A program made the translations under genes and the position numbers. Positions 1 through 64,000 of a stretch of DNA of 64,000 bases are shown here, one piece after another (the first letter of the stretch is position 1; each line of letters begins with the position of its first letter). The notes beneath the pieces are model-generated. The model was given only the letters and a program-made list of their open reading frames with translations. It ran no database searches and was not told the origin of the DNA. The stretch covers positions 62,001 to 126,000 of the forward strand of contig QPGO01000106.1 in the NCBI GenBank assembly GCA_008632985.1, given 5' to 3'. This stretch comes from Psammoneis japonica (lineage: Eukaryota).

Positions 1-3000
1 TGGGCACAGGCAGAATCCCACAGGTTGTTGCAGTCAGCACTTCATTGTGAATTGCTGATGACTCCATTTGACAAAACATTCAAAATGGCCCTTTGTGTCT
101 TGTCATTCCATTGCCTGGCCATGCGCGCACCTGCCACGCAAAGACTTTGAGGATTTTATGATGCCTTCTTTTTGCTGCAGCACAACAACGCTTCATGTTT
201 GTGCCCTTTGCACAAGCCCTTGCAATGACTGAAGGCGCGGTTCCAATTGCAACATTGTCACACCACTGCAGCCGCATCTCTGCTGCAGCAGATGGAAAGC
301 AGTCGCACAGCACAGCACAGCACAGCAGTTGGTTGTGAGTGCCTGCCGCAGCCCCGTTTGTTGTCCAACGGTCATCCAAAAATCGACATCCACCAACACC
401 CATCACCTCACAATTTCGAATTTGAGTCAGATCGAACTATCCATTTGTTTTGGTTTGAACGAACAATGAAGCTCTCCTCTTTCAAGACTCTGTTTGACGG
501 GCTCCAGTCCTGGGCGGGACTTTTTGTGACATTGGGCCCGCAGAATTCTACGTGCGAGCTCCGCATTGCGGGAATTTAACCAATGGATGTTTTTGTCTTC
601 AACATCAAACAAACGACCAAGTTTGTGGTGCAATTGTGACCATTGCCACTTGGTGTTTTTGCAAACACGCCTGCCCTGCGCCATTCTTAAGACATTTGCG
701 AATGGCGCAGAAGAAAAAAATGTCAAAAGTTGTTGGACGGATCGCTCAACAAGTGTGCCACAAAATGATGCAAAATTTCACAAAAGTCATGTGCCTTTCT
801 GCGTGCGCAACATGCGGTGCGATCCAAAAAACTGTCGATGTTGCAGTTCAGCAGCACGAGGTCCCACCCAGAGCTGGAACGCGTCATTCACCTTGCTCAG
901 TGCGGTTGCTTTCGCACAGGCCAATGGTGAGCAGACTTCTTTTGATCCCTTGTGCGCGTTCCCAACCCATGGCTGCGGCAGCCACGGTGACTTGTGATGA
1001 CCCATCATGTGGCTCATGCACTTGTGTGGATTCTTTCTTGCATGCCATGGAGATCCTGATGAGTGCTCCAGTGGTCCAAGATGCCCCATTGCCCGCGGCA
1101 ACTCCTGCAGGCGCGGCAGCTCCTGCAGAGGCAGTGGAAGCTCCTCCGGAGGCCGTGGAATGTCAGACGGCAGGCACCAAAGTCATGAGCGCTGGTGGCG
1201 GCAGCCCAGAAGGGATTGAGGAAGGAGCAGGAAAAACAAAGGGTGCTCGGGACAAGCCAGCCAAAAAGGCGGAAAAGAAGGGCGGCAAAGAGGAGAGAAA
1301 AAAGAAGAAGGCCGTCAAGAAAACCATCAAGAAGGCAGTCAAGAAGGCTGTCGCAAAGGTTGCCAAAGTGGCACCCACCACAACAGATGCTGCTGCCAAG
1401 AGGACAGAATGAAAGGAGCATCGCAAAGAACGCAGGAAGTGCAAAAGGTTGGGCTGCACCAAAGCAAGCACCGACGAGGCTTGCATTGCATGCAATCTCA
1501 AATGCTTGAACCGCCAGCTGTCTGTGTTCACAGAGAACAGCGTCTCTAAAAGCACAAAGCTGTGAAAATCTTGTCACAATGAAGTGTGATGAGTGGACTC
1601 ACTCCTGCACCAGCTGGAGCATCAACTCCAGCCTTTCCTTTGTAACTCGAGATGTTCAAGACATGCAGAGGAAAACTGCGGTCTCTCACACAGTTCAGCT
1701 GGACAATTTCAATGATTGCTGCGAGGCAGGCTCGAATTGCCAGTTCGCTGCGGTGACTGCACTCCTTCGAGTTGAGATCAATTGTGTTCTCTTCTCTCGA
1801 AACTGGGGCTGCGGCAGTGGGCTCGACTGCACTTGCTGCTGGGAGGAGCTGAGGCAGCATTTTGTTTGCTGCCCTGTTCAGTTGCACATGTCATCCCTGC
1901 TGACGCTGCGTGCCCAATGGAAACAACTTTGCACGTTGGGAACAACATTGCATTGTGCTCTTCTGTGGCGAACTCTCCACACAAACAAATCGCACGGTGC
2001 GGTCCGTTGTTGAGACAGGTTGCGGTGTTGGACGCTTTCATGTCAAGCGCTGCTTGTTTTGACAGCTCACCACAATGCAAATGAATGGTCAATGACAATG
2101 TTGCTGATTCTTCTTTTTGGCTTCAATTTTGCAGAACCGCTCAAGGTTTGCGGCCACTCAGCCCCCCCCCCCCCATGACTTGCTGTCCCCGGCTTTGTCG
2201 ACCCACCAAAGCCGGCAACCTGGTTGGTTCCCATTGTCATCAAGCACAGCACAATGGTTCCTTCTTGAATGGGAAAGGCCCCACCAATGCTTTGGATGCT
2301 GTTGTGGCTCTGACTCACATGAAACTGTCACTCGGAAAATGCAAAGGAATCCTTTTCCAAAATGCACATGCGATCAATGAGAGAAGTCGTTGGAAGGTTG
2401 TCAATGCAAAAGTTGTTCCATGAAAACTGTTCTTCGAGTGACTTTGGTTTGTTTTTTGGACAATCAAGCAGCCCCTGGCAAAAAGATGAAGCATTCAACT
2501 TTAGAAGTTTGGCCAGCTCCATCTTGTGGCGCAGTGCCCTGGAGGGTTCAAAGGACTTGTTCTTGGCACGGGCACAGGGTGAAATTCCATCCAGCCCTTT
2601 GCGGCGACAGCTCACATGTCGATTGAGCAAAACATTGCACGAGCACTCTTCCATGCCTTTGGGGCTTGTGTTGCCACTGGCCTTGAGAGCCGCAAATGCG
2701 TCAATCTCGTCTCGTGACAAGTTGAGATCAGCACCTGGAGCGGCGTTTAGACACAATTCAGTCATGTCTTTGGCGTGCGGCTCCAGCCTTGACTTTTTAA
2801 ACTCCTTGAGCAATGCTTGCATGATGGATCCAAACAACATTGGGGTTGGATCAATTTGCTTCTTGTCAGATGATGACACGAACGAGTCATGAAAGTCTTG
2901 AATCGGCTCCTTGACAAGGCAGGCAAATCGAGCGCCAAATCTCGGTTCTGTCGAATGTTTGCCGCACAATCTCGCCGTCGCGGACCTTTTGGATTTCCTT

Positions 3001-3230
3001 GTTGGCAAAGCCCACCAATTTTAGAAGAGCTTTTGCCCGAGAAATTGTTGATGTCCCAACAGCACCCTTGTTGCGGGCGCGACGATGATTGCCTTGGTGT
3101 TTTTGTGGGTTGCTGCTGTTTGGTGACCGGGTTGTTGTTTCACCAGCCACTTGAGCATTGTTTGTTGTGCATCTTCACAAGAAGACTCTACATGCTGTCT
3201 TTGATGATGCCAGAATTGTCAACAATCCTG
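1..3230. other. TpA-depleted, hypermutated domain with unidentifiable decayed coding remnants (e.g. 2328..3008 minus; Lys/Ala-rich stretch 1200..1410 plus)
   Basis: TA dinucleotides are rare, and ORFs in all frames are Cys/His-rich and almost Tyr-free. Normal composition returns at about 3230-3330. Confidence 0.75.
496..885. mobile_element. MITE family A (GACGCGTTCCAG-type TIR), eroded copy
   Basis: Reverse-complement homologue of 46210..46598 over its whole length. Ends are GACGGGCTCCAG...CTGGAACGCGTC. Flanks GTTT/ATTC fit an ATTT target duplication after TA editing. Confidence 0.85.
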
Positions 3231-3506
3231 AGATGCTAGTTGTTGACACAGAGTGCATTGGATTCTGCCTCAAATCTGAGCGTCGAAGATGGAAGATGCT
3301 GTGGATCGTTTAGATAGATCATCGGATCATGAATAAATATTTATATTTAAAATTTGCCGCCAACACGAACGCGCGAGCCATGATCAAATTTTCAATTTGA
3401 GACGCGCGTTCAGTGTATTTTCAATTTATTACATTCGGGTATTGGAAGAGTTGTTTGTTGACGGCTTTAGTTGAAGAGATCTGACCAACAAAAAGGGGGA
3501 AATGCC

Positions 3507-10029: not shown

Positions 10030-11760
10030 TTGTACAGTGAGATGTTTGCTCCTCGTTGAAAACTGCCACTTGTCTCTTTTTTCAATGGCCACTCAACTTT
10101 CAAGAATAATCATGCTGCACATCATGTTCTCATAAAATGTGCTCTTTGCTGATTTGTTGCCCAACTTCTTCTTCCGTTTTCTTCAGTGCTGGGGCTTTTG
10201 TGCGCACCTGCCAGCCAGCGCCCAACTTGTGCGAGAGCACCGGCACAAATCCACATGAGAGCCTGTTGCAGTGCATGGCAAAGATGGGACAAACTCAGGA
10301 GCACCATTTTTAAAGCTTCAAGCAGGGCAGGGCTTGAAGAGGGGGGCAAGCAAGATGTGAGAGAGATGAGGGAGCACAGGAACTTTTGCCAATGGAGAAC
10401 AAAAAAAAAACACTTTGTCAAAAAGAGCACTCTTGCAAGGTGGTCATCAAGATCACAGTTTGGCAACCTTGGTGGTGCATGCTGTCCTGCTGTGCTGTGG
10501 TCTGGGCACTGGAGCAAGAGCAGAGCAGTGTGCCTCTCCAAAAAAACACACTCAAATGTGTGTGCAGGCTCCTCCATCACACACCCCATGGTTGGCTGAC
10601 ACTGAAGAACATTTTTTCCAGTGACTGGCCTCTTGGCAATGTGCAATGTGACACTTGAATGGAACAATGATGACTCTCTCAGAGCTGCACAAAACATTGC
10701 GTTTGTGCTGGAGCATCTTTGATGATTGAGTGCTCAGAACGTTTTGTCTTTTCTCTTGGGCGCTCAATTGAAAAAGTCAACTGACACAACAACAACAACA
10801 ACAACAACAACCTGCCAGCAGGCCATCCTCCACAACTGTTTTGCTCTCACGTTCTTTTGCCATGCTTGCCAACCGATGAGACGCTGCCGTTGAATGCTCC
10901 GTGCTTGTGCCCCTCGACAGTTGATGGACAATTGGTGGTTTGTTGTTTGTTTGTTGCACATGTTCTCTTCTGTCAAACTTTTCTCTCCTCTCTTCATGCC
11001 TCTTTGACATGTTTTTTTTTGTTGGCAACTGGAGACTGCTCACTGGGGGGGGGGGGGGGTGACAGCCGACCGAGTTGTGAGTCACGAGTCATGCGCACCT
11101 GTGACGTGGTTCACAGCTGCACACCCAGAAGACAGACATTGGAACAAATGGGTTGCAGAGGATCTCATTGGATCTCTCTTCCACTCACTTTCTTTCTGAC
11201 TGGCACTGTGTTGTCATCACTGTCCCAGCACGTGTCAGATTGTGCAGGCAAACCCTCTGTCTGTCACTTGGAGGAGGAGACGAGACGAGCACACAAGCAA
11301 AACAACAAGGGCAGCAAGTGGTGTGGCAGCAGAAAACTCCATCCAGGACCTTTCATCTTTGGGCATGTGTCAATGGAAAATGAAAAAAAAGCTGGTCCTC
11401 AAAATCAGTTTGGCAAAACCTTGGCATGCTGCCCTGCTGCTTTGCAAAGTGCGGTGCTTGAGGAGCAAGAGAGCCCCCCTCCCAAAAAAAAAAAAAACAC
11501 TCAAAAACGTGTGCAGGCGTTGCAAGGGCTGGCTCTTTTGTTCATGTTGGAGTTTCCTGCATCGCATGTTGTCACAAAAAAACACACTCAAACATGTGCA
11601 GGCGTTGCAAGGGCTGGCTCTTTTGTTCATGTTAGAGTTTCCTGCATCGCATGTTGTCACGGTTGGTTCACACTGAAGAACATTGTCTGTTCTCCTTGGC
11701 ATCAATCTCGGCAATGCGCCACGCGAAACTCGAACGGAACGTCATTGTGTGCAGGTGCTG
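10030..11760. repeat. TpA-depleted repetitive block with an internal duplication (~10330-10700 vs ~11290-11760) and a ~85-bp tandem pair (11490-11660)
   Basis: Shared strings GGTTGG(C/T)T(G/C)ACACTGAAGAACATT and AAAACAC(AC)TCAAA. GTGCAGGCGTTGCAAGGGCTGGCTCTTTTGTTCATGTT occurs twice in tandem. Confidence 0.7.
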
Positions 11761-12169
11761 TAGAATGTCTCTAACAATTTTGATTGTTCGGAGCAGTTTG
11801 TCTCATGCCTTGGATGCTTAATTGAAAAGTCTTGTGACATTTGTCAATGCTGCAATGACCTGCTGGTGGGTCATCCCCCACAATTTCAATTGTTTTCTCT
11901 GCTCTCACACATTGTTTCGCATTTTGCGCTTCGCATTTGCACCAACAATCAAGAATGCAATGGTTGGAGGCGACACACAAAAAACAAAACGATTGAGCAT
12001 GCTCTTTTTTAAAGATCGAAAACTCTTGCTTGGTGTGGTCCTGTCCACGTCATTTTCTCAGGGCCATGTTTTTCGAGGAAATGGCGCAAGTCCAAAAAAC
12101 GAGGGTGGTGTCCACAACATAGATGCAAACGCTGCCCGCAACGTCTTGTCGCGAAAAACAGAGCTCACA

Positions 12170-12536
12170 TGCACTGTGCTCGAAGAACGAGTGTAAACGA
12201 AAGTAGAACAGTGTACGAAAAGTGGAAATTATGAGATTAAATTTTGCTCTGTGATTTTTGGTTTCTCCGAACGAGTTCTCAATGGCCCAAAGCTTCTGTG
12301 CTGCTTCTACAGACAAAAGGCCTTTCGGAGAATATGTTCGTGACAACAGATTGTCCGGATGCGATTGCCATTGACACGCAAGATGTCAACATCGTCAATC
12401 GATCGTATTTGCAATTCTCGACATCCGATCAACTCTGTGTGATCGTTCTGTCCTTTGTGCGCATCCACGACTGTGGTGCGATTGACGTGCAAACAATGTG
12501 CAATCACAAACATGTGTGCAACAGTCGCACACTGCA
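12170..12536 (-). repeat. 3' LTR of the Gypsy element
   Basis: Direct repeat of 16494-16860, TGCAC...CTGCA, adjacent to the PPT. Confidence 0.95.
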
Positions 12537-15500
12537 TTTGCCTCCCTAATTGCACATTAGAGTCATTTGCAAGTGGATTGTTCGACGGACATCGACAGTG
12601 TCAACAATGTCTCCACTTTCACTGCATTGTGCCATTGGCAATGACTGTTGTTGTTTTGTACAGGCAACATGGGGCCGCTCCAATTTCCGAATGTCTTTTG
12701 AGAGTGACATTGTTTGTTTCTCACTTAATGTGCACATGTGCAGTGTTGCGTCGAGCATTCTCATTGACGTTCTTGTTGACATGAACACAAGGACTAATTG
12801 TCCTGGAGCAAGTGTTTTTCCTGACATCGATTGCACATGGCATCGTGCCCAGTGCTTAATGTGCGCTCTTAATTGTGGCGTTCACTTGCTTGCTTGTGGA
12901 TTTCATGTGGTTTGGCGGGCTTGCTTTGTGTGCCATGTTGCTCTGCTGCACTGCCACGTTTCACAAGCAACAACAAACGATGGTCAAAGACATTGTGACC
13001 ATTTCGTCTTGATGGTCAATCCTGTGATGGTTATGAATTCCATCATGGATTTTTTTTGTACTTCAACCATCTATCAGTTGGATTTTAATCGTCATTTGGA
13101 CGTTTCTTTCTGACATGCCGGTGTCATTTTGTCATTCCGAAGGCACTGGTTTCGTGCACCAAGTGGACAAATGTCCATTTTTCTTTTCTTTTTCTAGATC
13201 TTTGGCACATCTCGTGTGTCGACATGATGCACATTTTAATGTCTTGCCTCGTACATTGTACAATGCAACCGTACGGGTGTTGTGAGATTGTCTTTTGCCA
13301 GTGTGAAGTGGATGCGTATAATGTACACCAATCTGTCACTGTTTTTTCCTAAATCGTCCTTTAAAAAAAGGCGATTTTATCCTTGTGACATGAGCGTTCG
13401 TATGATATGTCGCGTCCGACAATTTGGAGGGAATGTCTTTATCCCGTTTTAACGGTAGGACATTGTCGTAGGATTCAATTTTCTATAGTAAGTCGGCTGA
13501 TCGCGTCTATCGCGACGATGTTCGCCTTGCCCTCGTTGTATTCTAATTTGGGACTGAAGTTGTCAACGTATGACTTTGTCCGTTGTGTCTTATGATCCGT
13601 ATATGTATAAATCTGTTGGCCAAACAGTATATTTCGGAATTTTATAAGTGTTTTCACTATGGACAGAAGTTCTTTTTTCCGTTGTAACGTATAATATTGA
13701 AATCCGTGTATGATAACAATATAGTTTTTGATTTGATACGCTCCATATTTTCGGAGACTTTTCGTTCCGTACTTGTACTTTTGCCGTTTGACCTTTATTG
13801 AGGTGAATTTGGCTAGTATTGTACAGGAGATCGTTGAGACTACATGTCTCGATAATAGTAACGTATGACAACGAGATGTCGTAGTGTTCTTTACGTTTTT
13901 CTCGTGTTGCGATTGCTTGAATCGCCTCCATTTTCTTTGTAATCGATTGCATGTCGTTACGTATGGAAGTCTTGATAGTTTATTTCAAGTTAAATAGTGA
14001 AGGACTTTTGTTGTTAACCTTCTAAGCGACTGTTCTAGTCGTTTGAATGCCGTATTAAGCTGTTACTTGTACAGGTGATATTTTGAAGTTACTTTTGTCA
14101 GGCACAAACGATCACATATAGTCGTTCTGACAACTTCAAACCTGTTATGAGTTCACTCAAGTGTTGTATAAAAATATCTGGGGCTCTATAGATTCTCATT
14201 GGAAGTCCATAGTACTCATTTTCTCCCCACGGCATGATTTTCGTGTGAGCACGACGTGTGCTTTTTTTATTTGACATGGTGGCATTCCATGTTTGAATCA
14301 AATAGATTACATATATGAAACGTTCTTGCTTCAATGGTATTTCCTGAATATTGGGTAAAGGACACACCACCTGTATGAACCTTATACTAAGCTTCTGAGT
14401 GTCGGATGCGGTCGAACTCGACCTGTTTTCTTTAGACAATGAGTCTCAGAGCGACTTGTTCAGAGTAATTTCATTCTTAAGACTTCAATCTTTCATAATA
14501 GGTCAAACTCCTTTTGATTGGACGCCTCCAAAGACCATGATAGGAGAAGGTTCTCACGCGTTGTGGAATCGCGTCAGATTTTCCACGATGAGATCCACTG
14601 ATGCTTCCCACACATTCGTCTGAGGAACTTTTCAAAACGATTTCAACCTCTTAAGAAGAAGATTGAGTTGGTTGTGTTCATTTGGGTTAGATGCATCGCC
14701 GTAGTTGTCACTTGATTAAGATCGATGGCGTGATGATGTGAGTCGAGGACCATTGGTTCCGTCATTAAACTCTATTCACGGCGTCATGTTTTTCAATGTG
14801 ATCGGTTTTCAGCTTGAAAACATCGGCATCGAAGAGTGTATGAACATTCTTCATAAGGTAATTGCTTCTTCCCATTAGATTTCTGCATTTGCGTAGTCCA
14901 ATGTGACTTGCAGGACTGGACATTAAGTCGCGTCCCATGATCATGTCATTTGAACCTGAAGAAAATTTGGTGTTTTCAACATGTGCTGTTTGAATGTCAG
15001 CATGCCTTAAATTTCGCATGGTGAGAACTGAATTCGGTGTTTACTGTCAGTCGTAAAGAGCTCACCCTTGGTTTCCCAAGTTTTTGGTGGCGGATTCTTG
15101 TGTTCTCAACTTTCGCACGAATTTGCGCAAAATTGTGGTTGACGATGTTCCGTTGTCGACAGGAACACGCAGATGCTTTTTTCTCTCCTTTCCCAAGGAA
15201 GTGTTCACATAAATGATGACTCCTGGACTGGTGTGAATCATTTCTGCCTTTTTTCTAGGCTTCCTAACATCCAGCAAAGCAAATGATTCGTGAATGGACC
15301 CAAATTGTTCTTCGGATTCACTCTGGATCATCCGATCAAATTGGCAGTTTTCTTCACTGAGGGTGTCAGAATCTGTTTCTTTGCCCTCACGCTCTTTTTC
15401 TTTGTTCGAGGAACTCGCTTTGAGCATTTTTTGAACCGCCTGATCAACCATGACGTTCATCTCTTTTTTTGCGAGCGGCATTTTCGTCATCGCGACGCGA

Positions 15501-16493: not shown

Positions 16494-16860
16494 TGCACTG
16501 TGCTCGAAGAACGAGTGCAAACGAAAGTAGAACAGTGTGCGAAAAGTGGAAATTATGAGATTAAATTTTGCTCTGTGATTTTTGGTTTCTCCGAACGAGT
16601 TCTCAATGGCCCAAAGCTTCTGCACTGCTTCTACAGACAAAAGGCCTTTCGGAGAACACATTCGTGACAACAGATTGTCCGGATGCGATTGCTGTTGACA
16701 CGTGAGATGTCAACATCGTCAATCGATCGCATTTGCAATTCTCGACATCCGATCAACTCTGTGTGATCGTTCTGTCCTTTGCACGCATCCACGACTGTGG
16801 TGCGATTGACACACAAATAACATGTAATCATAAATGTGTGTGTGACAGTCGCGTGCTGCA
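16494..16860 (-). repeat. 5' LTR of the Gypsy element
   Basis: Direct repeat of 12170-12536. Confidence 0.95.
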
Positions 16861-20613: not shown

Positions 20614-20946
20614 AATTTTCACCGCGATTGTTTTTAAATGAGGCCACGTTGGACTCTCTGAAAAGACTGCTTGAGGCAACAACAGGGCTATAATGCACCA
20701 ACGACGACGATCATAGGACGACGAGTGCGACTGTGATGAGTGCACACATGTGTTTTGGAGAAGGCCCAAGCCCATCATCAAACACGCATCATCGCCAACT
20801 AGTATTCGATCATTAATTTTTATCCGTGCCCGAAGGAAAATCATACTGATGTGTTGGAGGGAGTTCGCACTTGCCGTCCGTCCGCACACCCTTCACCCCG
20901 ATTCTACGAGCATCCTCCGTCCTCCTGATGTCTCGGATCAGCTGTG

Positions 20947-29670: not shown

Positions 29671-29699
29671 TGATGGTGCACTGCGTACACCGCACCCTT

Positions 29700-36930: not shown

Positions 36931-36939
36931 TCAACCTTT

Positions 36940-46783: not shown

Positions 46784-46841
46784 CGAACTGTTGCACCTTG
46801 ACGTCTGCCGGAGCAGACCTTGCAATGAGCTGCATTGCATC

Positions 46842-49242
46842 TTAGTGTCTGCCATAGTTTTTCTTGTTTTGCCAGCAGCTGTCAGTGACGACAGACTCTC
46901 CGCCTGGCTTCCGGAATGGCAAATCAAGATTTGCAGCCACGTGTGCCCACGCATGAGCATGCGGTAAAATTGGCACCACACAACAAGGGACGACAGCTTT
47001 TACAATGTCCTCATCAGTGCATCGACTAAATGCAGTCTCCGCTGGAAACCTTGCATTGAACAGTGGGCGGTCTCGAGAAATGTGTTGCGCAGTTTTCCTG
47101 CAGCCTTTCGATTCACTGAGCTTTTCTGGAGTGTTGACGTCATTGAAGCAGGGATGGTCTCGCTCTGTTCCAGCAAACCCCTTGTCACCGATCACAGGAG
47201 TGCCATTTGAAATCTCAGCCAGTCGCAGCAGGATCTTTGGGACATTTTCCAATTTTGGCTTTTGCGGCAGACCGTCCATGCCACTGCCAAGCCACGCCAA
47301 AAGCTTTTGTCGTTCATTCGCCGTCACTAAAAGACAGTGCAAAAGCAAGCACTTTCTCAGCCTGCAAGCTTCGTATGATCGATGAAGCCGCTCTTGTCGT
47401 TCAAGCTGGATCAATTTCCGTTTTCCACTGTTGTTCACTCCTCCACGCAGGACTTTGTCGTTTTGCTCCTCCAAGTGCTCCGGTGTTGTCATGGGTTGTT
47501 TCTTTCGCCCCCCGGTCACCTTCTCCGCTTGTTTGAGCAGCTTGTGTTCTCTCCACCAATCAAGAGCTTCTGACATCAAGCCAGATTCAGTTTCCTCCTC
47601 CAGTGCCTCCTCCACAGGGGCCTTGTTGTCGCTCACCACTTCCTCAAGTCCCGATGCTGTGGCTGTGACTAGCGCATCATCAAAACCGCGTCTTCCCCGC
47701 CCAGCAGATTTTGGTCGATCATCTCCTCAAATTCTGATGCTGTGATGATGTCATCGAGGGCCGTGCAGAAATTTGGAGCCCCTCCTGGGTCGTCATCTTT
47801 GTTGGCAGCATCTTCCCACTCGGACACAGGTGCGTGTGCAATGCCAAGCGATCCCCACAATCGCAGCATGCTCTTCTCTGACGCTCTGGCTCCAAACAGC
47901 GGAGTGTGCTCAAATGTAGTCCCGCACAGCGTGGACCACATTGGGCAGCGCCCGCAGTCGCAATCATTCTTTGGGCTGCACTGCATTTGGTTGGCGGTTC
48001 CATCCTTTCGCTTGGACTCCATGTTTGCATCTCGACCATCAACGAGAATCGATGGCCCAACTCGTACACCGCCTGCATCCAAGTCAGGATGTTCTCGTCT
48101 GACAAAGCCCCCCCAGGTGATGTCAAGAATTGACAAATCTTCTCCAGCCTCTCCCCATCTTGGAGCCCACTCATGAAGCATTTGTCCCACTCGAACACGA
48201 TGTCGATTTATCGTGAGGCCTGTCACACCTTCGACCTCCTGATGGTGAAAAAACAGTCGACAAATCAAGCATTTCTCTAGCTCTGATGTCGGGGGCATGT
48301 CAATGACTCCGCCAACTTCAATTGGAGCCACGGGGCAAGGCACATCATCAGCATTGATCTCAGGAAAAAGGTCTTGAACATGCTGCTTCGTTTCCTCCCA
48401 TGAAACAAAACCATGCAACAAAGACGCCGCATTTGGATGGTTCGAATGCCACTCATCATCGAAAACAGTGAGACGAGACAACCCTCCAGAGCTTGCTAGA
48501 AAATCCTCAACTTGGTCCCAGGTCAAGTGGTGGTCTTTACGCTGTAAATCTTGAGAGCTTTCTTCCAACGACTTGTGCTTTTTTGACAAACGAGCATTCC
48601 TCTCCGTCAATGCCTTGTTCTTTCTCTTGAAGCTGTCAATTGCATCTTGACGATGCTGAGCTTCACGCCTTTGGACAGCTGACTTTCATCCCTGTCATGA
48701 ACCACATGCTGCAACTCTTCTTCACGTGGAGAGCCTTGTTGATGTTGATGAAGCTTGCTTGGCATGTCAGGTCGAGCAGACGTCAGCAAGTCGCACAACG
48801 ACCCAACTGTGCTCTTGTCAACATTCGGGGCATTCACGCACATGACAGGATTTTCAATCCGCCACCGCAAAGGCCTGGGTTTCCCCAGATCAGGGTTGTG
48901 TCTCATTTTTTTGTCGTTCTTGCACTCGCCATGCAAGCAATTCCACTTTTCTGCAACATCAGGAGCGATGGGTGTGGACCAGTTTTCATTGGCATGGTCA
49001 AGCATCTCGTGCATCTCTTTTTTCCAGTGATGTCTTGCCACCTGCAATCGAGTGCACCTGGCATCACCGGCAGGTGATGTTCTCCCACGTTTGCCACCTT
49101 TTTTCCTGTCGGAGTAACACTCTCTGATTGTCTCTCGGTCGCTCTTTGACACGTGAAGGTTGAGGAAGACGGCCTCAAGAAGATTGACTGCGTTGCAAGA
49201 ATCTTCATTGCAAGCCAGCCTCACAAAGTCACCCCCAAGCAT
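46842..49242 (-). pseudogene. DDE transposase of the PIF/Harbinger/ISL2EU (DDE_Tnp_4-like) group, fragmented
   Basis: ILVDG...CSPKN...TPLFGARASE...VIGDKGF...NTP...R.PAETAFSR follows the DG / YSxK / GGRxSD / DKGF / R..VE order of that family. Confidence 0.7.
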
Positions 49243-50545
49243 GTGATTGATTGATGTAAAATGTTTTCGACATTTGTCACACTCTTCCCAATTGCAGAGA
49301 CACCTGTCATTCCAAGTGACTCGAGGTTGTCACTTGATGAATCACGACTTGATGCAACGACGGGACTGATGCTTTTCGACCGTTCCATGACAACAACGCA
49401 AATTCTTGCACACCCAATCCTCCTGCAAGGTGTGCACATGGGCCAAGCAACACAATGGGCAAATGAGAGAAGGCAGCGAGTTAGCAGAAGCAACAGCAGA
49501 AATTGTTGTTGACCGGATGCCCAACAATGGACCCACCTGCTTGTGTCAGCGAAATGCACTTTGGGTGACAGACCGTGGATGGAGAGAAATGGTTGACAGT
49601 GCACAACACTCGTAAGGGTTTTCATGCATGAGACATGGGAAGGGGTTGCGCCGACCTGGTAGACACATGCACAGTTGTCAATGAACGGTTGCTCAAGCAA
49701 TCGGCCATTTTGGGATGATTTTCGAGATCCGACCCAGACCGAACATGGCGCGCACGATTTTTCTGCGGGGGTTTTGTGCTGGGTTTTCACCACTCATGGT
49801 TGCCAAGCCACTGGTGGCTTGATCACAACATGGTCTGCAGCCAAGGGCTGCAATAAAAAAACTGTGGCTGGGCAATTGTTTGGTTTGACATCTGGGTGCA
49901 GATTTGTGCTGGCCTGGGCAGCTGCTGGGCCAAAAAGAAAGACAGTGTGGCCAACAGCGACACCCGGCCAACTGTGTGGGGGCCATGAGGAGGCAGGTCA
50001 GAGGAGCTGTCAATGCAAGCTGTTGGTGCTCCCTCCCTCTGGCTCTGGCACCTTTGCTCATCCTGTTGAAGAGCAAAGCAACAAGCCAAGAAACAGACAC
50101 ACCAGCAAGAAGCGCTCCCGCCTCTTTCTCCTCTCCCTGTCTCTGCCCTGCCCCCGCCCCAGCAGCAGGGAGCATGTCTCAGCATGTGCATTTGGCCACT
50201 TGTTCCAGTCTAACACCCAATTAAAGCCCAGAGTCTCTTGCTCCAGCTAAAAACCGGCATTAGTTTCAAGGGCAATGCCACCAGGCCACATCGTTGCAGG
50301 TGCGATCATGTCGAGCTCTAAATGGGCGCTTTTTGTGCTGCTAAAAAACAGAGTCCAAAGTTACCAAGTTGTTGTGGTTGGCGATTTCGATTGGCGCTTG
50401 GTACACAGCGATGGGGGGTTGCACTTCCAAACTTCCAAAACAGAAAAGAGCGGAGCTTGTTTGATTGAATGCCTACAAGAGAAAGTCGGCGACGCCTGTT
50501 TGACTTGTGCTTTAGATCAAAGCGAACGTTAGAGGCAAGAACATT

Positions 50546-51188: not shown

Positions 51189-53934
51189 TCAATTTTCATT
51201 TCCATTCATGCCCATGATCTCCTGAAACTCGGTCCAATCAACACCTCCATCGCGATTAACATCCAAGGAAGCTACAATTCTCGAAATCACGTCCTCCGGT
51301 TCGCCTGCCGAACGCAAAACGACTCGGATTTCATGGGGGTCCAACACACCATTTCCTTCCAGGTCAATGGCATTGAAAATCTCGCGAAGCTTGCCCTTGT
51401 CCGATGTCGCTGTGCGGTGACTATCAAAGCGATTCAAAATGTGAGATTTGAATCGATTACGAAGGTAACTGTCTTGTAGGCCCAATCCGCTGTTGCTGCT
51501 CTCGCCACGTTTGCTCATCATGAGGGCTCGGAATTCATCCCAACGAATCACACCGGTACCATCCAGGTCGGCGCATTCAAATATCTGACCAATATGCTTG
51601 TCAGAAATACCCATGTCTCCAAGTACCGTTGTGACCTCTTCCAGGTCCAGTACACCGTTTTGTTTGAGATCCAACGCACGAAACATGGCCTCCAACTCGT
51701 GTTCTGTAGTAGTATCACTGCTTGTGGTGGAAAACTTTTTCAAAATTTCGGCACGAAACTTGTGTTGCCAATAGGCTTGTAATTCTGCATGGGTCTTGGA
51801 CATGGTTTTCCACGACGCCGTCAATCCTTGTACCCATGGGTGTCGTCGAAAATCGTCCGACGTCATGCGCTTGTGGGGATCGGGATGCATTAATTGTTTC
51901 ATTAAATCAATGCACGAATCACTCAAACCGTCAATGCGTTCGTCAAAGACCAACTGGTCCATGAGAGAATTGGCCTTTTGTTGTGGTTCTACTTCTTCGC
52001 CATTGTCCTTGCTTTCGATGCTGCTCTTTAACTTCATTAAATCGTGAGCAATATCCTCGTCAGGTTTATCTGCGTACTTGTCAAACGGGTGACTATGTAC
52101 GAGTACAGTATACAGAAAGGAGAAGCGTCGTAAGTTAGGCATACGCCATGAGCTCAAGCACTAATGAAATCAGAATTGGGACACAAATGCTACTTACGAG
52201 CCAGTCAGCAAAAGATACACAATCACTCCTGCTGCCCACATGTCTGCAGCGGGCGTCGGCTTGGCGCCCTTGGCAAAGAGTTCTGGTGCCCAATAGGCAA
52301 TGGTCCCCGAGGCGTTTTCGTCTTCCACTCTTTGTTTGAGAATCGATTCACCATACACTTTGAGTTTCGGAGGAACGTTAACATCGCCACGTTTGGATGC
52401 TCCGTAGTCTTTCAACAACTTGATTATTGCCGCCGAGTTCTTTTTGGCACTCTTGGCATCGTCCAGTGGGCGATTCCCCCACCGGTCTTCTACATTGACA
52501 TTGGCTCCCGCCTCGCAGAGTAGCTTGACAACCGCCAATCGCCCTTCGCCCGCCGCAAGATGACATGCTGTTCGTCGATCATAATCGCCTTGATTTATAT
52601 CAATGTTTCCAAATTGCAACAAGGCTTGAACTACCTTGACATCTCCCAGAGACGCGGCATTGATGAATTTTTCAATCGCCAAGGCATCATTACCAAATGT
52701 GGCACCGTGTTGACCGAGAAATTCAAGCACGTCGGCATGTCCGTGTCGGTGTGCATCATCCAACGGACTGCCACCCCATCGATCGACGCGGTTAATGCGA
52801 GCACCGCGTTGTACGAGAAATCGACAAATGTCCAAATGCTACATGTAAACGAGTTTGTATGGATAGAGCGAAAAAAGTGTGAATAGCGCGAATCGTGAGT
52901 CTTCTAAAGCTCGCACAAAACACACGGACAAGGCCGCAAACTCGACCAATCCACAATATACTACGTACACCTTCCGATGCTGCGATGTGAAGAGGAGTCC
53001 GCTTGTCATAGTCCCTAAAGTTGACTAAATTCGGTCGTTCCTGCAAGATGCGTTGCAATTCAAACTGATTTCCCAGAGCCACCTGATGAAGAACACTACA
53101 ACCCATGGCAAATTCTTGAGCCGGCAAGTGCAAATCCTTTTTTGCCAAATCGTGTGTACACGCACATCCGAAATCCACCACCTTTAATGCCATGCTATTG
53201 TTATTGTTGTTTTCGTCCATACCGGATGATGATGCAAACGATGTGGCCAGCATTAAGTTTTCAGGCTTGAGGTCTGCATGAATGTATCCGGACGAATGAA
53301 CAAAGCAAAGAGCTTCGGCAAACTGCCGCATAAAGGATGCCGCGACTGCCTCCGAGTAGGGTCCATTTTGAATCAAATGTTCCAATAGCTCCCCACCTTG
53401 TACAAGTTCCATGGCGAGATAGTAATTCTTGTCGTCACGATGCAAATCATACAACTTGACAACATGATTGTGTGGACCCGACGGTGGTTTGGAAAGTAGT
53501 TGGAGTGCCGCCACTTCCCGTTCAAAGTCCGTCTGACCGGTATACTCGCGGGGCATAGTTTTCAAGGCTACCGCAAGACCATCGTTCTTGCGACGGGCTT
53601 GATAGACCATGCCGTACGCGCCTTCACCCAACACTTGTTCAATGTCGTACACATCCTTGAGTTGAAACCGTTTGGGAGGTGATGATTCGCAGAGACAGGA
53701 ATTGCTGTAATGGAGGGGAGCTATCGAGTGTTTGTTTTCTTCAAAGGCCTTGTAGGCCACAGAAGCAGCACAGGCTCCACCCACGGCCGCCACGAGTCTG
53801 ACAGTATTACTCTTGTTCCTTGTGATGCATGTACTTGCAAGGCGACGACCACTCGAAGAAAAAGTCGCTTGTGCTCGGCTGATTTGCCGACCAAGAGGGA
53901 CAACACGAGAACACCAGCCTGTTTGTTGAAACAT
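51189..53934 (-). CDS. Ca2+-dependent (CDPK-like) Ser/Thr kinase with an ankyrin-repeat insertion and four EF-hands; introns ~52845-52968 and ~52095-52197
   Basis: LGEGAYG, VALK, HADLKPEN, DFG, then ankyrin repeats (DYDKRTPLHIAASEG, DRWG..PLDDA), then GTIAYWAPE, DMWAAGVI. EF-hands DLKQNGVLD, DLDGTGVI, DLEGNGVLD, DVNRDGGVD. Confidence 0.9.
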
Positions 53935-54466
53935 TTTCGCACTGTCGTTTGTTGATTGATTTTTCTCTCTCTTTTGATTCACGACGACGTCGCCATTGTC
54001 ATGTTGTTAGAATATCTTTCTCGTTGAACATGTGAGAAAATCGACGCGAATCTTTCTTCCGACTTTTCAGGTGGAAGCAAGTTTTGCATCATTGAAAAGG
54101 CTACAGATCTGTATAGTTCATAATCGCGCAAAACCGAACGCGCGGGGTGTCACCAGCTGACTGAAATGTGTCATCGAACCTGCAGTTTCGTCCTTTTTGG
54201 CTTGATTGCTCTCTACTCTAGCTAGTTGGGAGTGGTAGTAGAGCAATTTTGAACTAACTAAAGAAACTAGCGTACAAAGAACGAATTGTAAGGAAAAGAA
54301 TAGTCCATGACATCAGCCTTCCACTCTTTACAGCTTGGGTCCTGTGATCCTCAAGGCGCTGCCAGCGGATCTTTCCCAATCCAAATAACCTGCTGCAATG
54401 ACGGAAAATCTTGCTCACAAAGGAATCCTGTGGTGGCTTTGAAAACTAACATTTTGTCCAATCCCA

Positions 54467-61198: not shown

Positions 61199-61565
61199 CT
61201 AGGGTAGAGAATGGGTTAGTCTACTCTCTAGCTAGAGTAGAGGCGCACTGACAACATTAACAATGAAGTGTACTTGCAATCGCGCGGGGCTTTCTTACCA
61301 CGAAGATTAACTCTTTAGCATAACGCTCAGACGCAGCCAGGTTCGTTGACGATCATAACAATCACGTGTACAAATTGCCTCACTACTCTAGGGTAGGAAG
61401 AGAATGGAGCAGTCTAGTGGAGGTGCTTTGACGACCATCACAATGAAGTGTACTTACAATCGCACAAGAGTTTCATACCTCGAAGATAAACCAATTATGT
61501 CTCAGACGCAACAGCCAGGTTCGCTGACGACCATACCAATCACGTGTACATACTGCTCTACTACT
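61199..61565. repeat. Diverged tandem duplication of ~180 bp
   Basis: ACAATGAAGTGTACTT.CAATCGC and CAGCCAGGTTCG.TGACGA.CATA.CAATCACGTGTACA each occur twice. Confidence 0.85.
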
Positions 61566-61621: not shown

Positions 61622-63109
61622 TTATCCTCCAATTAATGTCATGGGCCGATTCATACTGGAATGCTTGGCAAGTTTAATGGCATCTCCGTGTCCTCCCAAT
61701 GAAAACGTCTTTTGTTGAACGGCATAATGAATGAGCTTGTTGAGTTGATCGGGTGACCATCCGTCCCGTAGAGCGTCTCGTAACGAAATCTCACTCGTTC
61801 CAAACAAGCAAACCTTGATATTGCCATTGGCGGTCAGTCGTAATCGATTGCAAGTGGAACAAAAATGCTCCGACATGGATGTGATAAAGCCAATGCGCCC
61901 TGTATCGGGATGTAGCTGATACCATTTGGTAGTGTCGTTGGGACCGTCCGAAATGCGTTGCAACTCGATTCCATCTCGTTTCAACTGTTGTAACATTTCC
62001 TGATAGGACAAAAACTTTTCGGTATCCCAACCATTGTCGGAAAAGGGCATCCATTCAATAAAGCGAACATCCAAATTGGGCAACCTTTCGGTAAGCAAAC
62101 AAAAATCTTTGAGTTCCTCATGGTTAATACCCTTCATGACGACCATGTTGAGCTTGACACGACCCTTTGGAAAGATTTGACAAGCACGCTCTATGGATCG
62201 CCAAACCTTGTCAAAGGCGTTTCGTCGTGTCAATTCTTGAAATTTGGTCCGATCCAACGTGTCCAAGGAAATGTTAATGTGCGTCAAGCCGGCATCCAAG
62301 AGTTGCTGCAATTGGTCGGAAGAGGTGGAAAGCGTCACACCGTTGGTCGTAATTCCAATCTGTTCCAGAGTCGGAAACTTGGACAACTCGCTTACAATCT
62401 CCACCAAGTCTTTGCGCAACAGTGGTTCGCCTCCCGTCAAACGAATCTTGGTGACGCCGGCCTTTATAAACATGCGTGTCAACGTCAGCAATTCAACCGT
62501 TGACAGCAATTCGTTGGATGGTGACAGCGGCACACCCTCGGGTGGCATGCAATATTGACAACGCAAATTGCACTTTTCCACCAAGGACAAACGCAAATAG
62601 GAATGATGACGTTGAAATTTGTCCGTCAAGATTTGTTCGTTTGGTAATACGGGTGGGAGCTCGTCCATGCGTTGTCGTAGTTCTTCCAGCGATAATAATG
62701 TAGTGTCCTTTTCTGGTTTATTCTTTTTTGTTGTTTCTGTAGTGGATGGTGATTTGTTCCATATTTTTACAATTGCGTCTTGTGCTTGATCTAGTTCTAA
62801 TTGTTCCTGAAGTGCCTTGAGTCTCGGGCGACTGCTTTTCTTGCGGGTGGTACTCACAGTACCTGTTCTCGTTGTTGTTGTTCTTGAAGCTCTTATTTTC
62901 TTCTGAGATGTACTATCCAAGGATATGGATGAAAAATTAGATACAGGACTCCATCTTGTTGTTTGTGAATAATGGGATGGCAGCAACAGTCCGTTTTCAG
63001 CAATTGTTTCTCGCACTAAAGAAGAAAATTGAGGTATGTTTGATAGTTGTTGTTGTTTTCTGAAACGCAAAGAGCGGGTCAACAAAGACCCTCGCGCAAG
63101 ATGAACCAT
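61622..63109 (-). CDS. moaA: GTP 3',8-cyclase (molybdenum cofactor biosynthesis MoaA/CNX2/MOCS1A), probable mitochondrial presequence
   Basis: YLRLSL..CNLRCQYCMP radical SAM motif, RLTGGEP, FIEWMP, FCSTCNRLRLT..G..KVCL, terminal MTLIGG. Confidence 0.95.
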   Translation of the reverse strand: MVHLARGSLLTRSLRFRKQQQLSNIPQFSSLVRETIAENGLLLPSHYSQTTRWSPVSNFSSISLDSTSQKKIRASRTTTTRTGTVSTTRKKSSRPRLKALQEQLELDQAQDAIVKIWNKSPSTTETTKKNKPEKDTTLLSLEELRQRMDELPPVLPNEQILTDKFQRHHSYLRLSLVEKCNLRCQYCMPPEGVPLSPSNELLSTVELLTLTRMFIKAGVTKIRLTGGEPLLRKDLVEIVSELSKFPTLEQIGITTNGVTLSTSSDQLQQLLDAGLTHINISLDTLDRTKFQELTRRNAFDKVWRSIERACQIFPKGRVKLNMVVMKGINHEELKDFCLLTERLPNLDVRFIEWMPFSDNGWDTEKFLSYQEMLQQLKRDGIELQRISDGPNDTTKWYQLHPDTGRIGFITSMSEHFCSTCNRLRLTANGNIKVCLFGTSEISLRDALRDGWSPDQLNKLIHYAVQQKTFSLGGHGDAIKLAKHSSMNRPMTLIGG

Positions 63110-63399
63110 TATAATATATGCTAGAGACAAGCCTGGCTTTTTCTATTGCAACAAGAATTGCAAGACCTCTGAGAAACAACAACAACAACACAACGCCAAC
63201 AACGAACAAAGTTCCAGTCGAAAAAAAAAAGTGAGAAACAACGCGAGAGCGAGCGACGTGGGACGTGGCGTCTGCGTAGACTGTCGTAGAAAACATACTG
63301 CAAGCAAAACTACCGGCAGTGGGGGCGGGGGATGGCATGCAAGACACTATCGTATCGGACCATGGCAGACGACATCAAAAAAGCGCGCGATCGCGATCG

Positions 63400-64000
63400 A
63401 AGCGGGTGAAGGAAAGCGCAGCTGCATGCAACGCGCCAACTGGGAAAAGAAGGAGAGGAAGAACATGCAAGCCCCTACAAAAAAGGCTTGCCCAACAAGT
63501 GCTCCTCATGCAAGAACAAGAGAGTGGTGATGGAGGAAGACCCAAGAGATGAGAGGAGAGGGCCATCTGTGCACAGCAGCAGTGCCGACAAAACGAAAGC
63601 AAACGTGTGCCTTCATCACTCAGGCAAGAAATGTGCACACTGCTGAGGTCAGACGTTGCAGCTGTCCTTCTTCTGCATGCCACTGGTGTGCATTTTGTGT
63701 GAGGAGACCTTGAGATGCTTGCTCTTGCTTGGCAACATCTGACCTTTTTCTGCCAACACTGTGCATTTTGTGTGAGAGGAAACCTCCTTTGTGCTTGGCT
63801 GCTCTTGCTTGGTGGAGAGCATGCTGCTGGTGGGAGACAAAACAACAACAACAAAATTTCCACAAGAGAGGTGATTTTTGGCAAGAAAATGATGGCACAA
63901 TGCATGCACTGTTGTTTTTCAGGTGCGCTTGATGGCCTGTTTTGCTGTTTCTTTCACTGGATCTTCACTTGTTTGAAAGAGTGTCCTCTTCATTGTGTGG
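63400..64000. other. Start of another TpA-depleted block
   Basis: TA almost absent from ~63480 to the window end. Confidence 0.65.

Follow-up and report, generated by a model that had tools for sequence, protein, structure and literature searches.

Features and composition of the locus

The window, ie the whole 64-kb stretch of DNA analysed, has observed/expected ratios (o/e) of 0.37 for TA, 1.40 for TG, 1.39 for CA and 0.77 for CG. Nine TpA-depleted domains, D1 to D9 (Table 1), account for 27.4 kb or 43% of it, with a TpA o/e of 0.03-0.21 and TG and CA o/e values of 1.32-1.89. The five gene-bearing stretches between them give 0.52-0.60 for TA and 0.95-1.16 for CG. Expressed as counts, there are 151 TA dinucleotides in the 27,431 bp of the nine domains versus 1,196 in 29,890 bp of normal stretches; the GC content is 0.46-0.51 in the former and 0.45-0.48 in the latter. 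The longest runs free of TA are 1,322 bp (10311-11633), 1,312 bp (41084-42396) and 1,258 bp (22602-23860), and the edges of the domains can be placed to within tens of bases, TA reappearing every 10-20 bp beyond the last of these runs. The near-absence of TA and the excess of TG and CA described in the initial annotation are borne out by the ratios for each domain, with two corrections. The block at 40700-50220 is depleted but not continuous, as a TA-normal island splits it, and in the domain at 14500-17500 the depletion is only partial and CpG is retained.

Table 1. Features of the window, with o/e values for TA and CG where given
Feature	Position	Strand	Remarks
D1, TpA-depleted domain	1-3230		TA 0.06, CG 0.61
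Segment of D1, mutated paralogue of 46210-46599	495-885		TA count 3 (depleted copy) vs 24 (normal copy)
ThrE-like pseudogene fragment in D1	1166-1573	-	
D2, TpA-depleted domain	10030-13250		TA 0.14, CG 0.57; 1,322-bp TA-free run
300-nt direct repeat, left copy (in D2)	12169-12468		
D3, partly depleted domain	14500-17500		TA 0.21, CG 0.87
300-nt direct repeat, right copy (in D3)	16493-16792		
WD40-like ORF in D3	16706-17800	+	
D4	20946-23860	+	dead BTB paralogue (20946-22716), then 1.1 kb more
D4, part used for composition	21050-23860		TA 0.03, CG 0.37
Intact BTB/POZ gene	28285-29790	-	501-aa open frame, normal TA
D5, TpA-depleted domain	29700-31650		TA 0.09, CG 0.29
Intermediate tract	31744-32720		TA 0.36; TA<->TG/CA differences vs X1 contig
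D6	33150-37400	-	high-copy Ty1/copia retrotransposon remnant; TA 0.05, CG 0.35
LTR-like direct repeats of D6	34005-34225 and 35935-36157		
RNase H-like ORF of D6 copia remnant	34309-34842	-	
32-nt tandem array in D6	36625-36926		
D7, TpA-depleted domain	40700-45900		TA 0.05, CG 0.38
Mutated duplicates in D7	42176-43544		of normal genes at 39125-41335
EXO1/XPG-like nuclease pseudogene in D7	44369-45340	+	
TA-normal island within depleted block	45912-47027		contains 46210-46599, unmutated partner of 495-885
D8	47030-50220	-	TA 0.09, CG 0.61; degenerate gene, conserved family without Pfam model
ORF in D8	47672-48685	-	0 Tyr in 338 aa
D9, TpA-depleted domain	63400-64000		TA 0.03, CG 0.26; extends past window end

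The depleted blocks are non-functional DNA: a copia remnant, dead copies paralogous to genes nearby, and unidentifiable sequence. The targeted host-gene paralogues include a BTB gene, a RING/MYND pair and an EXO1-like gene. Over the copia remnant (D6) the summed k-mer depth in read set X1 is 1.1e3-4.5e4, versus about 55. No homologues were found for the 329-aa ORF of D2. Among the element types originally proposed, the copia remnant and the gene duplicates were recovered but DNA transposons were not, there being no transposase family among the 125 ORFs of the window. No viral family was found among those ORFs, and no effector gene lies within the 64 kb.

The process had also been described as repeat-targeted, and this could not be upheld. 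One copy was left unmutated in three of the five paralogue pairs, two depleted domains are at single-copy k-mer depth, and the BTB duplication is almost unmutated over its initial ~110 bp, which adjoin the 5' end of an active lipase gene. Repetition in itself is therefore not what directs the process, and functional neighbours and functional paralogues are spared. The process erases Tyr codons and AT-rich signals; TAA and TAG stops are also erased, and therefore all six frames remain open.

Direction and sequence context of the substitutions

The direction of change is from TA to TG or CA. The direct evidence for this comes from four paralogue pairs and two protein families; for D2, D5 and D9 the direction is extrapolated. 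Of the 89 TpA sites in the normal copies of the four pairs, 59 have become TG or CA in the partner and 8 are still TA, as the initial annotation had claimed for paired copies. For D4 the intact BTB/POZ gene was used as the reference copy. All 13 of its Tyr codons are lost in the dead paralogue, where they now specify Cys (5), His (5), Asn (1), Val (1) and Phe (1), and the products TG and CA each occur 17 times, ie both strands were hit equally. In the copia RNase H, the five columns with a Tyr consensus among 120 homologues all read Cys or His (Y>C 3, Y>H 2), and the 178-aa ORF has no Tyr compared to 4.1% in those homologues. Of the lost tyrosines singled out at the start, LAD(Y>C)LE in BTB and ETAT(Y>H)GS in copia were confirmed; for XPG, the site of GND(Y>C) lies beyond the end of the PDB alignment. 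Independent copies mutate independently: among differing dinucleotides, double differences with TG in one copy and CA in the other number 7 in the LTR-like repeats and 10 in the copies of a 368-bp repeat.

These comparisons bear on whether TA was simply never common in the blocks, as in DNA of foreign origin or under selection, and no mutation took place in situ. In favour of this, D2, D5 and D9 have yielded no relatives from which an ancestral state could be read. However, wherever an ancestral proxy exists TA was present and then lost, which contradicts such an origin for D1, D4, D6 and D7. The depletion also occurs regardless of reading frame and strand, and sites polymorphic for TA and TG or CA (see below) represent change in progress. 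We consider an intrinsic composition of this kind highly improbable.

In the paralogue pairs the per-strand A>G value was 0.35 at TA, 0.11 at AA, 0.15 at CA and 0.08 at GA. Transversions amounted to 23/187 at TA (12%) versus 41/504 at AA (8%), and only transitions are in excess. The A:T to G:C transitions at TpA on both strands that the initial annotation proposed are therefore real features of the comparison, restricted to degenerate DNA and leaving the neighbouring genes free. Its suggestion of Pol-eta-type repair, which prefers WA, is contradicted by the value at AA (0.107), which is at background, and by transversions that are not raised.

The base 3' to the adenine has a clear effect, with A>G values of 0.53 for TAC, 0.44 for TAT, 0.28 for TAG and 0.15 for TAA, ie 44/90 for TAY versus 22/96 for TAR (Fisher p = 2e-4). 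The products differ accordingly, RTAR giving CA 15 times and TG 6 times, and YTAY giving TG 11 times and CA twice (p = 0.004). Tetranucleotide survival in depleted relative to normal DNA, a ratio which assumes a similar starting tetranucleotide content, is 0.03 for RTAY, 0.15 for RTAR, 0.09 for YTAY and 0.44 for YTAR, and fits the product of two independent strands (0.18^2, 0.18 x 0.66 and 0.66^2). On the basis of these ratios and 186 strand-sites, each strand is hit independently, and A>G favours 5'-TAY-3', equivalent to T>C in 5'-RTA-3' on the other strand. It is for this reason that RTAY is almost extinct and YTAR survives best. Because of the per-strand 5'-TAY-3' rule, Pol-eta (WA), ADAR (UAG) and RIP do not fit.

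To our knowledge ADARs are restricted to animals, and it is scarcely credible that the changes arose in transposon transcripts through ADAR-like A-to-I editing and reached the genome by reverse transcription and reinsertion. One target is indeed a retrotransposon (copia), and ADAR resembles the present process in the U preferred 5' of the edited A, as given in the part of PMC10661471 that lists motifs. However, the strands are hit equally in both the BTB pair and the copia ORF, the preferred 3' base is Y and not G, and among the sequences hit are tandem gene duplicates still in place, as well as intergenic DNA, with edges that are locally sharp.

Recent change, base identity and CpG decay

In the intermediate tract (977 bp) the window and an X1 contig disagree at 11 of the 31 TpA sites, versus at most 1 of 915 other positions (p = 8e-17; odds ratio about 500). 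Twelve differences are recorded and eleven listed, and all of those eleven are TA<->TG/CA transitions. Six sites are mutated in the window and five in X1, in separate tracts (2/462 arrangements). Nine of the 11 differences obey the TAY/RTA rule, nine are T>C on the + strand, and none is a CpG change. In the normal stretch 24496-27608, TpA-type changes make up only 2 of the 13 differences. The concentration of differences at TpA sites means that the process is recent, and the tract carries the traces of hypermutation that is both recent and specific to a haplotype or strain. Hypermutation of the blocks is probably still ongoing.

A modified base at heterochromatic TpA that is read as G or C, the DNA being truly TA, would give the same calls. 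The platforms of the assembly and of run X1 are not recorded, and X1 may be the source sample. An X1 contig covering 29644-31742 (D5) has no base differences from the window, although as possibly the sample of origin X1 is weak as an independent check of base identity. The X1 contigs nevertheless reproduce the TG and CA calls at full k-mer depth and, because they differ from the window elsewhere, constitute a separate consensus; in the polymorphic tract the TA and the CA/TG allelic states are each at full depth. The same loss is seen in a metagenome contig (L040) and in database proteins from other sources (eg P0122, with 0 Tyr), and the same domains show ordinary pseudogene decay, with indels and transversions. 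De novo mutations of the same type in Bigelowiella natans were, according to the preprint text, called from Illumina reads (Mettrop et al., bioRxiv 10.64898/2026.01.13.699255). A sequencing or base-calling artefact is thus most unlikely.

CpG is depleted along with TpA in eight of the nine domains (Spearman 0.74 for TA versus CG in 500-bp windows), and of the 166 CpG sites in the normal copies, 90 have become TG or CA in their depleted counterparts. The CG>TG/CA change of methyl-CpG decay is therefore present, for the CpG component only. The initial annotation gave this co-occurring decay too little weight, but was right that neither RIP nor methyl-CpG decay can explain the loss of TA. The CpG decay, a 5mC footprint, co-occurs with TpA loss but is separable from it, as seen in D3 and in the related copia loci of metagenomes. 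Just one of 80 such loci is TpA-depleted (L040, 3 TA in 2,766 bp), and many have a CG o/e of 0.12-0.5 with normal TA. 5mC is given as a repressive mark in diatoms in the text of PMC12344493.

The correlation of the two losses would suit a scheme in which T:G mismatches from methyl-CpG deamination enter a non-canonical mismatch repair, during which a Pol-eta-type polymerase mutates nearby A:T pairs. Such a by-product of 5mC is, however, very doubtful. A>G is far lower at AA than at TA and transversions are not raised; D3 has lost TpA and kept CpG; extreme TpA loss is confined to one of the copia loci, many of which are strongly CpG-depleted; in the BTB pair the conversion of TpA outpaced that of CpG; and CpG is absent from the recent changes in the polymorphic tract.

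Candidate chemistry and comparison with known systems

Taken together, the window very probably records genuine TpA hypermutation in situ, of the same kind as in B. natans, in sharply bounded blocks. The organism is a diatom-like stramenopile, diatoms accounting for 10 of the 11 MoaA hits that carry an organism name. As to the chemistry, the sequence pattern leads us to favour adenine deamination, tentatively. Adenine would be deaminated enzymatically to hypoxanthine and then read as G, the substrate would be transiently single-stranded DNA, and a TadA/ADAT2-like or other polynucleotide deaminase is the candidate enzyme. The activity would be directed to silenced chromatin, the silencing being deduced only from the pseudogene state and the CpG decay.

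Identical sequence predictions are made if thymine is the base modified. In that case T within 5'-RTA-3' in silent chromatin would be oxidised, by a TET/JBP-type dioxygenase or an enzyme like it, and the 5hmU/5fU-like product would mispair with G to give T>C. Oxidised thymines can mispair with G, and the data are symmetric, T>C in RTA reading as well as A>G in TAY; the predominance of T>C on the + strand in the polymorphic tract is in keeping with this. However, excision of the oxidised T should also produce transversions and indels, neither of which is in excess at TA, no TET/JBP-like enzyme is present within the window, and near-complete T>C conversion by such a route is without precedent. 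We regard thymine modification as unlikely.

If adenine deamination is retained, diatoms and chlorarachniophytes might conceivably share an active enzymatic genome defence, in which a DNA adenine deaminase guided by chromatin marks or small RNAs makes A>G changes at 5'-TAY-3' within silenced DNA, whichever the strand. Were this speculative reading of the sequences true, eukaryotes would have, in addition to RIP, a second defence by mutation, with the opposite compositional outcome, possibly ancestral in the SAR clade and acting on dead gene duplicates as well as mobile and viral DNA.

The A:T phase of immunoglobulin somatic hypermutation, due to Pol-eta, has a WA motif which includes AA, a TA hotspot and many transversions, and is secondary to a deamination event. 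It resembles the present process in affecting A:T pairs and in the TA hotspot, but differs in that the window shows only background values at AA and an excess of transitions alone. RIP, in ascomycete fungi, makes C>T changes, mainly CpA>TpA, which create TpA, AT-rich DNA and stop codons, and it mutates both copies of a repeat. In both processes duplicated or mobile DNA is irreversibly inactivated by mutation, the changes are transitions that depend on a dinucleotide, and they leave blocks of altered composition. Here, in contrast, TpA is destroyed rather than gained, GC is slightly raised, TAA and TAG stops are gone, and one copy is intact in three of five pairs; fungal RIP was rejected on the loss of TpA and the intact copies. 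Methyl-CpG decay, known from silenced transposons of diatoms and other eukaryotes, is represented by CG>TG/CA in the same blocks and in related metagenome copia loci, but does not remove TpA, and in most of those loci occurs without TpA loss.

In tRNA, the target of TadA/ADAT2, U33 precedes A34. We know of no natural TadA/ADAT2 that mutates chromosomal dsDNA domains at such a scale. Table 1 of PMC10661471 lists TadA/ADAT2 with the motif 5'ACG and the substrate 'RNA, DNA?'; its A>I change is read as G, and the C after the A matches the order TAC>TAT>TAG>TAA found here. For ADAR, which acts on dsRNA, the same source lists UAG. Both enzymes share with the present process a U/T directly 5' of the target A, but the ADAR motif has the opposite 3' preference to TAY.

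The initial annotation knew of no description of such a process, which is refuted by the 2026 bioRxiv preprint on B. natans (10.64898/2026.01.13.699255). In the literature consulted, the TpA-erasing signature has so far been reported only there, in an unrelated alga. According to the preprint text, integrated viral DNA is hypermutated de novo from TpA to TpG or CpA; in mutation-accumulation lines nearly every mutation was A>G / T>C, with TpA as the site in all cases. The changes in the window are likewise A>G/T>C transitions in a TpA context, yielding TpG or CpA according to strand. In both organisms they are confined to particular, discrete silent regions, where mutation proceeds at a rate that exceeds that in the rest of the genome by orders of magnitude, and the TpA depletion and CpA/TpG gain described in the preprint are similarly clustered by window, with enrichment in RT/DDE coding sequences. 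The host there is a rhizarian chlorarachniophyte and here a diatom-like stramenopile; viral DNA is targeted there, whereas dead host-gene paralogues and copia are targeted here and no viral genes were found in the window. The o/e in the NCLDV region of B. natans is 0.45, compared to a near-saturated 0.03-0.1 here. CpG decay co-occurs here, and CpG is not mentioned in the preprint text; nor do the words 'trinucleotide' and 'flanking' appear in that text, whereas the TAY rule and base-sharp edges are seen here. Activity was established there from mutation-accumulation lines and is deduced here from polymorphism between the window and X1. The present locus thus provides a second supergroup lineage for a barely known process, and adds detail of its motif, targets and boundaries.

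Composition and content of the depleted blocks

Over the whole 64 kb of the window the GC content is 47.5%, and the observed/expected (o/e) ratios are 0.37 for TpA, 1.40 for TpG and 1.39 for CpA. The TpA deficit is concentrated in nine blocks, numbered D1 to D9 in 5' to 3' order in the table below. Their TA o/e of 0.03-0.21, against 0.52-0.60 in the five gene-bearing stretches between them, confirms the depletion reported in the initial annotation. TG and CA stand at 1.32-1.89 in the blocks; the gene-bearing stretches have TG/CA at about 1.2 and CG at 0.95-1.16. There are 151 TA in the 27,431 bp of the nine blocks and 1,196 in 29,890 bp of normal DNA, and the longest TA-free runs are 1,322, 1,312 and 1,258 bp. 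The transition at block edges takes no more than tens of bases: 22602-23860 is without TA, and beyond it TA occurs every 10-20 bp. The domain originally drawn as 40700-50220 is indeed depleted but is not continuous, as a TA-normal island of about 1.1 kb (45912-47027) interrupts this largest depleted block. The island contains the unmutated partner of the copy in D1, and its ORFs have no Pfam family. A further stretch between two blocks, 13250-14500, is AT-rich (GC 0.37-0.40) with normal TpA (0.58-0.96) and CpG up to 1.82; it is enclosed by two direct repeats of 300 nt (12169-12468 and 16493-16792, 95% identical) and could represent either a recent insertion or a regulatory region that is protected.

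Coordinates of the TpA-depleted blocks and of degenerate copies found by self-comparison
Feature	Position	TA o/e	CG o/e	Partner
D1	1-3230	0.06	0.61	
D2	10030-13250	0.14	0.57	
D3	14500-17500	0.21	0.87	
D4	21050-23860	0.03	0.37	
D5	29700-31650	0.09	0.29	
D6	33150-37400	0.05	0.35	
D7	40700-45900	0.05	0.38	
D8	47030-50220	0.09	0.61	
D9	63400-64000	0.03	0.26	
Inverted BTB paralogue	20946-22716			BTB gene 28285-29790(-)
Copy of parts of RING-like and MYND genes	42176-43544			39125-41335
Copy in D1	495-885			46210-46599

Having lost TAA and TAG, the blocks are open in all six frames; they hold 179 ORFs of at least 80 aa and include ORFs of 200-365 aa that have no homologues. With no TAA or TAG stops and many spurious long ORFs, gene finders will over-call in such DNA. 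By self-comparison, several blocks prove to be degenerate copies of intact neighbour genes. In the 125 block ORFs that reach 95 aa or more, Pfam matches were confined to a ThrE-like fragment, a WD40-like ORF and an XPG_N/XPG_I ORF (44369-45340), which aligns with EXO1/RAD2 structures in the PDB, the alignment stopping at query residue 208 or 273, ahead of the initially proposed GND(Y>C) site. No reverse transcriptase, integrase or transposase was matched in these 125 ORFs. The gene duplicates and the copia element proposed initially stand, and the DNA transposons are unconfirmed since no transposase was found.

Block D6 is a Ty1/copia remnant bordered by LTR-like direct repeats. It was recognised solely through the 296 homologues of its ORF (34309-34842, minus strand), which include entries with the Cylindrotheca closterium labels 'Reverse transcriptase Ty1/copia-type' and 'Ty1/Copia family ribonuclease HI'; read-through translation of the region with X at stops matched no Pfam family. 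TpA erasure pushes mutated transposable-element proteins under Pfam thresholds. The summed k-mer depth in sequencing run X1 is 1.1e3-4.5e4 over 34008-36675 compared with about 55 in flanking DNA, and the TpA-erased copia family therefore has hundreds of copies of at least 90% likeness. A second run, X3 (0.16 million letters), gave only contigs of 31-59 nt, on both strands, lying exactly on the LTR-like repeats (34202-34247 and 35968-36013); these could represent small RNAs targeting the element, the kind of run being only guessed. The remnant is adjoined, within the depleted block, by a tandem array of 9.5 copies of a 32-nt unit (36625-36926).

D8 encodes a decayed member of a conserved family; of six homologues of its ORF that were tested, five had no Pfam family and one had a sub-threshold PHD match. 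A homologue search with the D2 ORF at 10785-11771 found none, and the same block carries a tandem duplication of 2 x 85 nt (11491-11660).

Outside the blocks, a calcium-dependent protein kinase gene of normal composition lies at 51189-54006 on the minus strand, in three open-frame pieces (kinase domain with an ankyrin-like part, and four EF hands). The MoaA-like ORF at 61622-63142(-) has 11 organism-named matches at identities of 48-58%, ten from diatoms (Nitzschia, Pseudo-nitzschia, Cylindrotheca, Eucampia, Thalassiosira-like, Bacillariaceae and a 'Staur...' entry) and one from a ciliate transcriptome. Just downstream, at 61236-61565, a unit of 54-76 nt is repeated three to four times, in diverged form, within TA-normal DNA. 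Rfam and tRNA scans of the 64-kb window gave no match in either case. A diatom-like stramenopile also fits the long exons, the 121-nt skip seen in one contig and the CoDi-like copia elements.

Direction, context and strands

Four pairs of normal and depleted copies were used to follow individual sites. Of 89 TpA sites in the normal copies, 59 were TG or CA in the depleted copy, 8 were still TA and 22 were something else; 90 of 166 CpG sites were likewise TG or CA. The 13 Tyr codons of the intact BTB gene have become Cys (5), His (5), Asn, Val and Phe (one each) in the dead copy, with none still Tyr. In the copia RNase H fragment all five columns with a Tyr consensus among 120 homologues are Cys (3) or His (2). 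No Tyr is present in the 178 residues of the copia ORF or the 338 of the D8 ORF, compared with 4.1% and 2.6% among their respective homologues, and the conserved Cys and His of the former are retained. Two or more Cys/His at Tyr columns were seen in 8 of the 120 copia protein homologues. The pair counts and the Tyr losses make TA ancestral and TG and CA derived, which supports the mutational reading of the TpA loss.

Substitution rates in the paralogue pairs were counted per strand. A>G stands at 0.35 for TA, 0.11 for AA, 0.15 for CA and 0.08 for GA, and the transversion frequency at TA (23/187) is close to that at AA (41/504). Error-prone repair of the Pol-eta type, which had been offered as a candidate, is disfavoured because AA is not hit and transversions are not in excess. 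The 3' base has an effect: A>G is 0.53 in TAC, 0.44 in TAT, 0.28 in TAG and 0.15 in TAA, ie 44/90 for TAY versus 22/96 for TAR (p = 2e-4). At RTAR, sensitive on the lower strand only, the product was CA in 15 cases and TG in 6, and at YTAY it was TG in 11 and CA in 2 (p = 0.004). TA survival relative to normal DNA is 0.03 for RTAY, 0.09 for YTAY, 0.15 for RTAR and 0.44 for YTAR, values which match two independent strands with survivals of about 0.18 (TAY) and 0.66 (TAR). A single rule, that A>G is favoured in 5'-TAY-3' (T>C in 5'-RTA-3' on the opposite strand), predicts both products and survivors. Outside TpA, A>G is somewhat raised at NAC, with GAC at 0.17, AAC at 0.16 and CAC at 0.28 (the last possibly confounded by unpolarised CpG changes), other contexts being 0.03-0.12; this hints that a 3' C contributes on its own.

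TG and CA arise equally often (17:17 in the BTB paralogues), and both strands are therefore targets. Double differences of TG versus CA are frequent between the LTR-like repeats and also between copies of a 368-bp repeat, ie repeat copies mutate independently. No strand-coordinated runs of TG or CA exceeding shuffles were found in the saturated domains. RNA editing by ADAR followed by retro-copying was rejected on three grounds: both strands are hit, the preference is for a 3' Y, and the targets are in place.

Recent activity, CpG decay and repeats

Logan contigs of run X1 were compared with the window over 20001-40000. They agree with it through the depleted blocks, with no base difference over 29644-31742. 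In the adjacent 31744-32720, where TA o/e is intermediate (0.36), the X1 contig has 12 differences, and each of the 11 listed sets a TA in one of the two sequences against TG or CA in its counterpart. The six sites mutated in the window all lie in 31947-32193 and the five mutated in X1 all lie in 32257-32680, a separation that only 2 of 462 arrangements give. The TAY/RTA rule is obeyed by 9 of the 11. Overall, 11 of 31 TpA sites differ, compared with at most one position among the 915 others (p = 8e-17, odds ratio about 500). Changes of this type account for just 2 of the 13 differences listed for the normal stretch 24496-27608. After the divergence of two haplotypes or strains, therefore, each has acquired TpA transitions in a tract of its own and no other changes, and the process is apparently still active. 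An artefact is very unlikely, as X1 is a separate consensus, the allelic states are at full depth, and both a metagenome contig and database proteins carry the footprint.

TpA loss and CpG loss are correlated (Spearman 0.74). D3, however, has lost TpA with CpG retained, and in the BTB paralogues TpA conversion is faster than CpG conversion. Among related copia loci from metagenomes (the best 80 of 515 confirmed relatives), many combine strong CpG depletion (o/e 0.12-0.5) with TpA in the normal range (0.33-1.06). TpA erasure is confined to one of these 80, L040, which has 3 TA in 2,766 bp, no Tyr and the same ETATHGS motif as in the window. Six others (L048, L039, L004, L021, L024 and L011) have CpG o/e of 0.12-0.22 and ordinary TpA, and are presumably methylated elements of other diatoms without the TpA process. 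CpG decay alone was rejected on the evidence of D3 and the CpG-poor copia loci; these, with the conversion rates, indicate a lineage-restricted process and not a by-product of 5mC. With 1 of 80 related loci bearing the signature its occurrence is patchy, so that comparison of genomes with and without the footprint could reveal the effector gene.

The initial annotation also called the process repeat-targeted, which is not supported. One copy is untouched in three of five paralogue pairs, D4 and D5 are at single-copy depth, and the BTB duplication retains TA, with hardly any mutation, over its first 110 bp or so, where it adjoins the 5' end of the lipase gene. The process is thus not repeat-induced in the sense of RIP, which was also rejected because its direction is opposite. 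What sets the block borders is probably not the repetition of sequence but some other feature, chromatin state being the most plausible candidate. Run X2, whose kind was guessed as DNA, covers only TA-normal genic parts and none of the depleted domains, with one 121-nt skip (26704-26824); this looks like the cover given by RNA, and its absence is no evidence of silence.

Candidate mechanisms and known systems

The process is TpA-specific, transition-only, two-stranded, TAY-biased, sharply localised and recent. Any mechanism must accommodate the per-strand TAY rule, the transition-only spectrum, independence from CpG decay and base-sharp edges. We tentatively favour adenine deamination, in which a polynucleotide deaminase would act on transiently single-stranded DNA, at slightly worse than an even chance. 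The order TAC>TAT>TAG>TAA resembles the TadA/ADAT2 context, unlike the UAG of ADAR. The target context of TadA/ADAT2 is U33-A34-C35. A review table lists the motif as 5'ACG and the substrate as 'RNA, DNA?' (PMC10661471). A modified thymine in RTA as the route to T>C would give the same sequence pattern, and we consider it unlikely. A natural DNA adenine deaminase, if found, would be of interest for base editing.

The process had been thought undescribed, but the same kind of hypermutation is reported, in a preprint, for mutation-accumulation lines of Bigelowiella natans (bioRxiv 10.64898/2026.01.13.699255). There, 231 of 302 nuclear mutations fell in two integrated viral regions, at a rate about 1000-fold over baseline; 230 of the 231 were A>G or T>C, all 230 on TpA. 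Coding sequences depleted in TpA and enriched in CpA+TpG were enriched in RT and DDE domains, and an ADAT2 homologue was proposed as effector. The text of the preprint makes no mention of CpG, trinucleotide context or diatoms. Our literature search found no other description of such hypermutation, and none for diatoms; PMC4504042 mentions TA only with regard to nucleosome positioning. A single 2026 preprint had been the only source for natural, targeted hypermutation of chromosomal DNA in the A:T->G:C direction, and the saturated, apparently still active signature in a diatom-like genome places it in a second eukaryotic lineage. New constraints come from the window in the form of the TAY rule, the separability of TpA loss from CpG decay, sharply drawn borders, polymorphic tracts and the presence of host pseudogenes among the targets. 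TpA erasure is also a route of gene killing distinct from RIP: RIP kills genes by creating stops, whereas the TpA process raises GC and removes Tyr codons and AT-rich signals.
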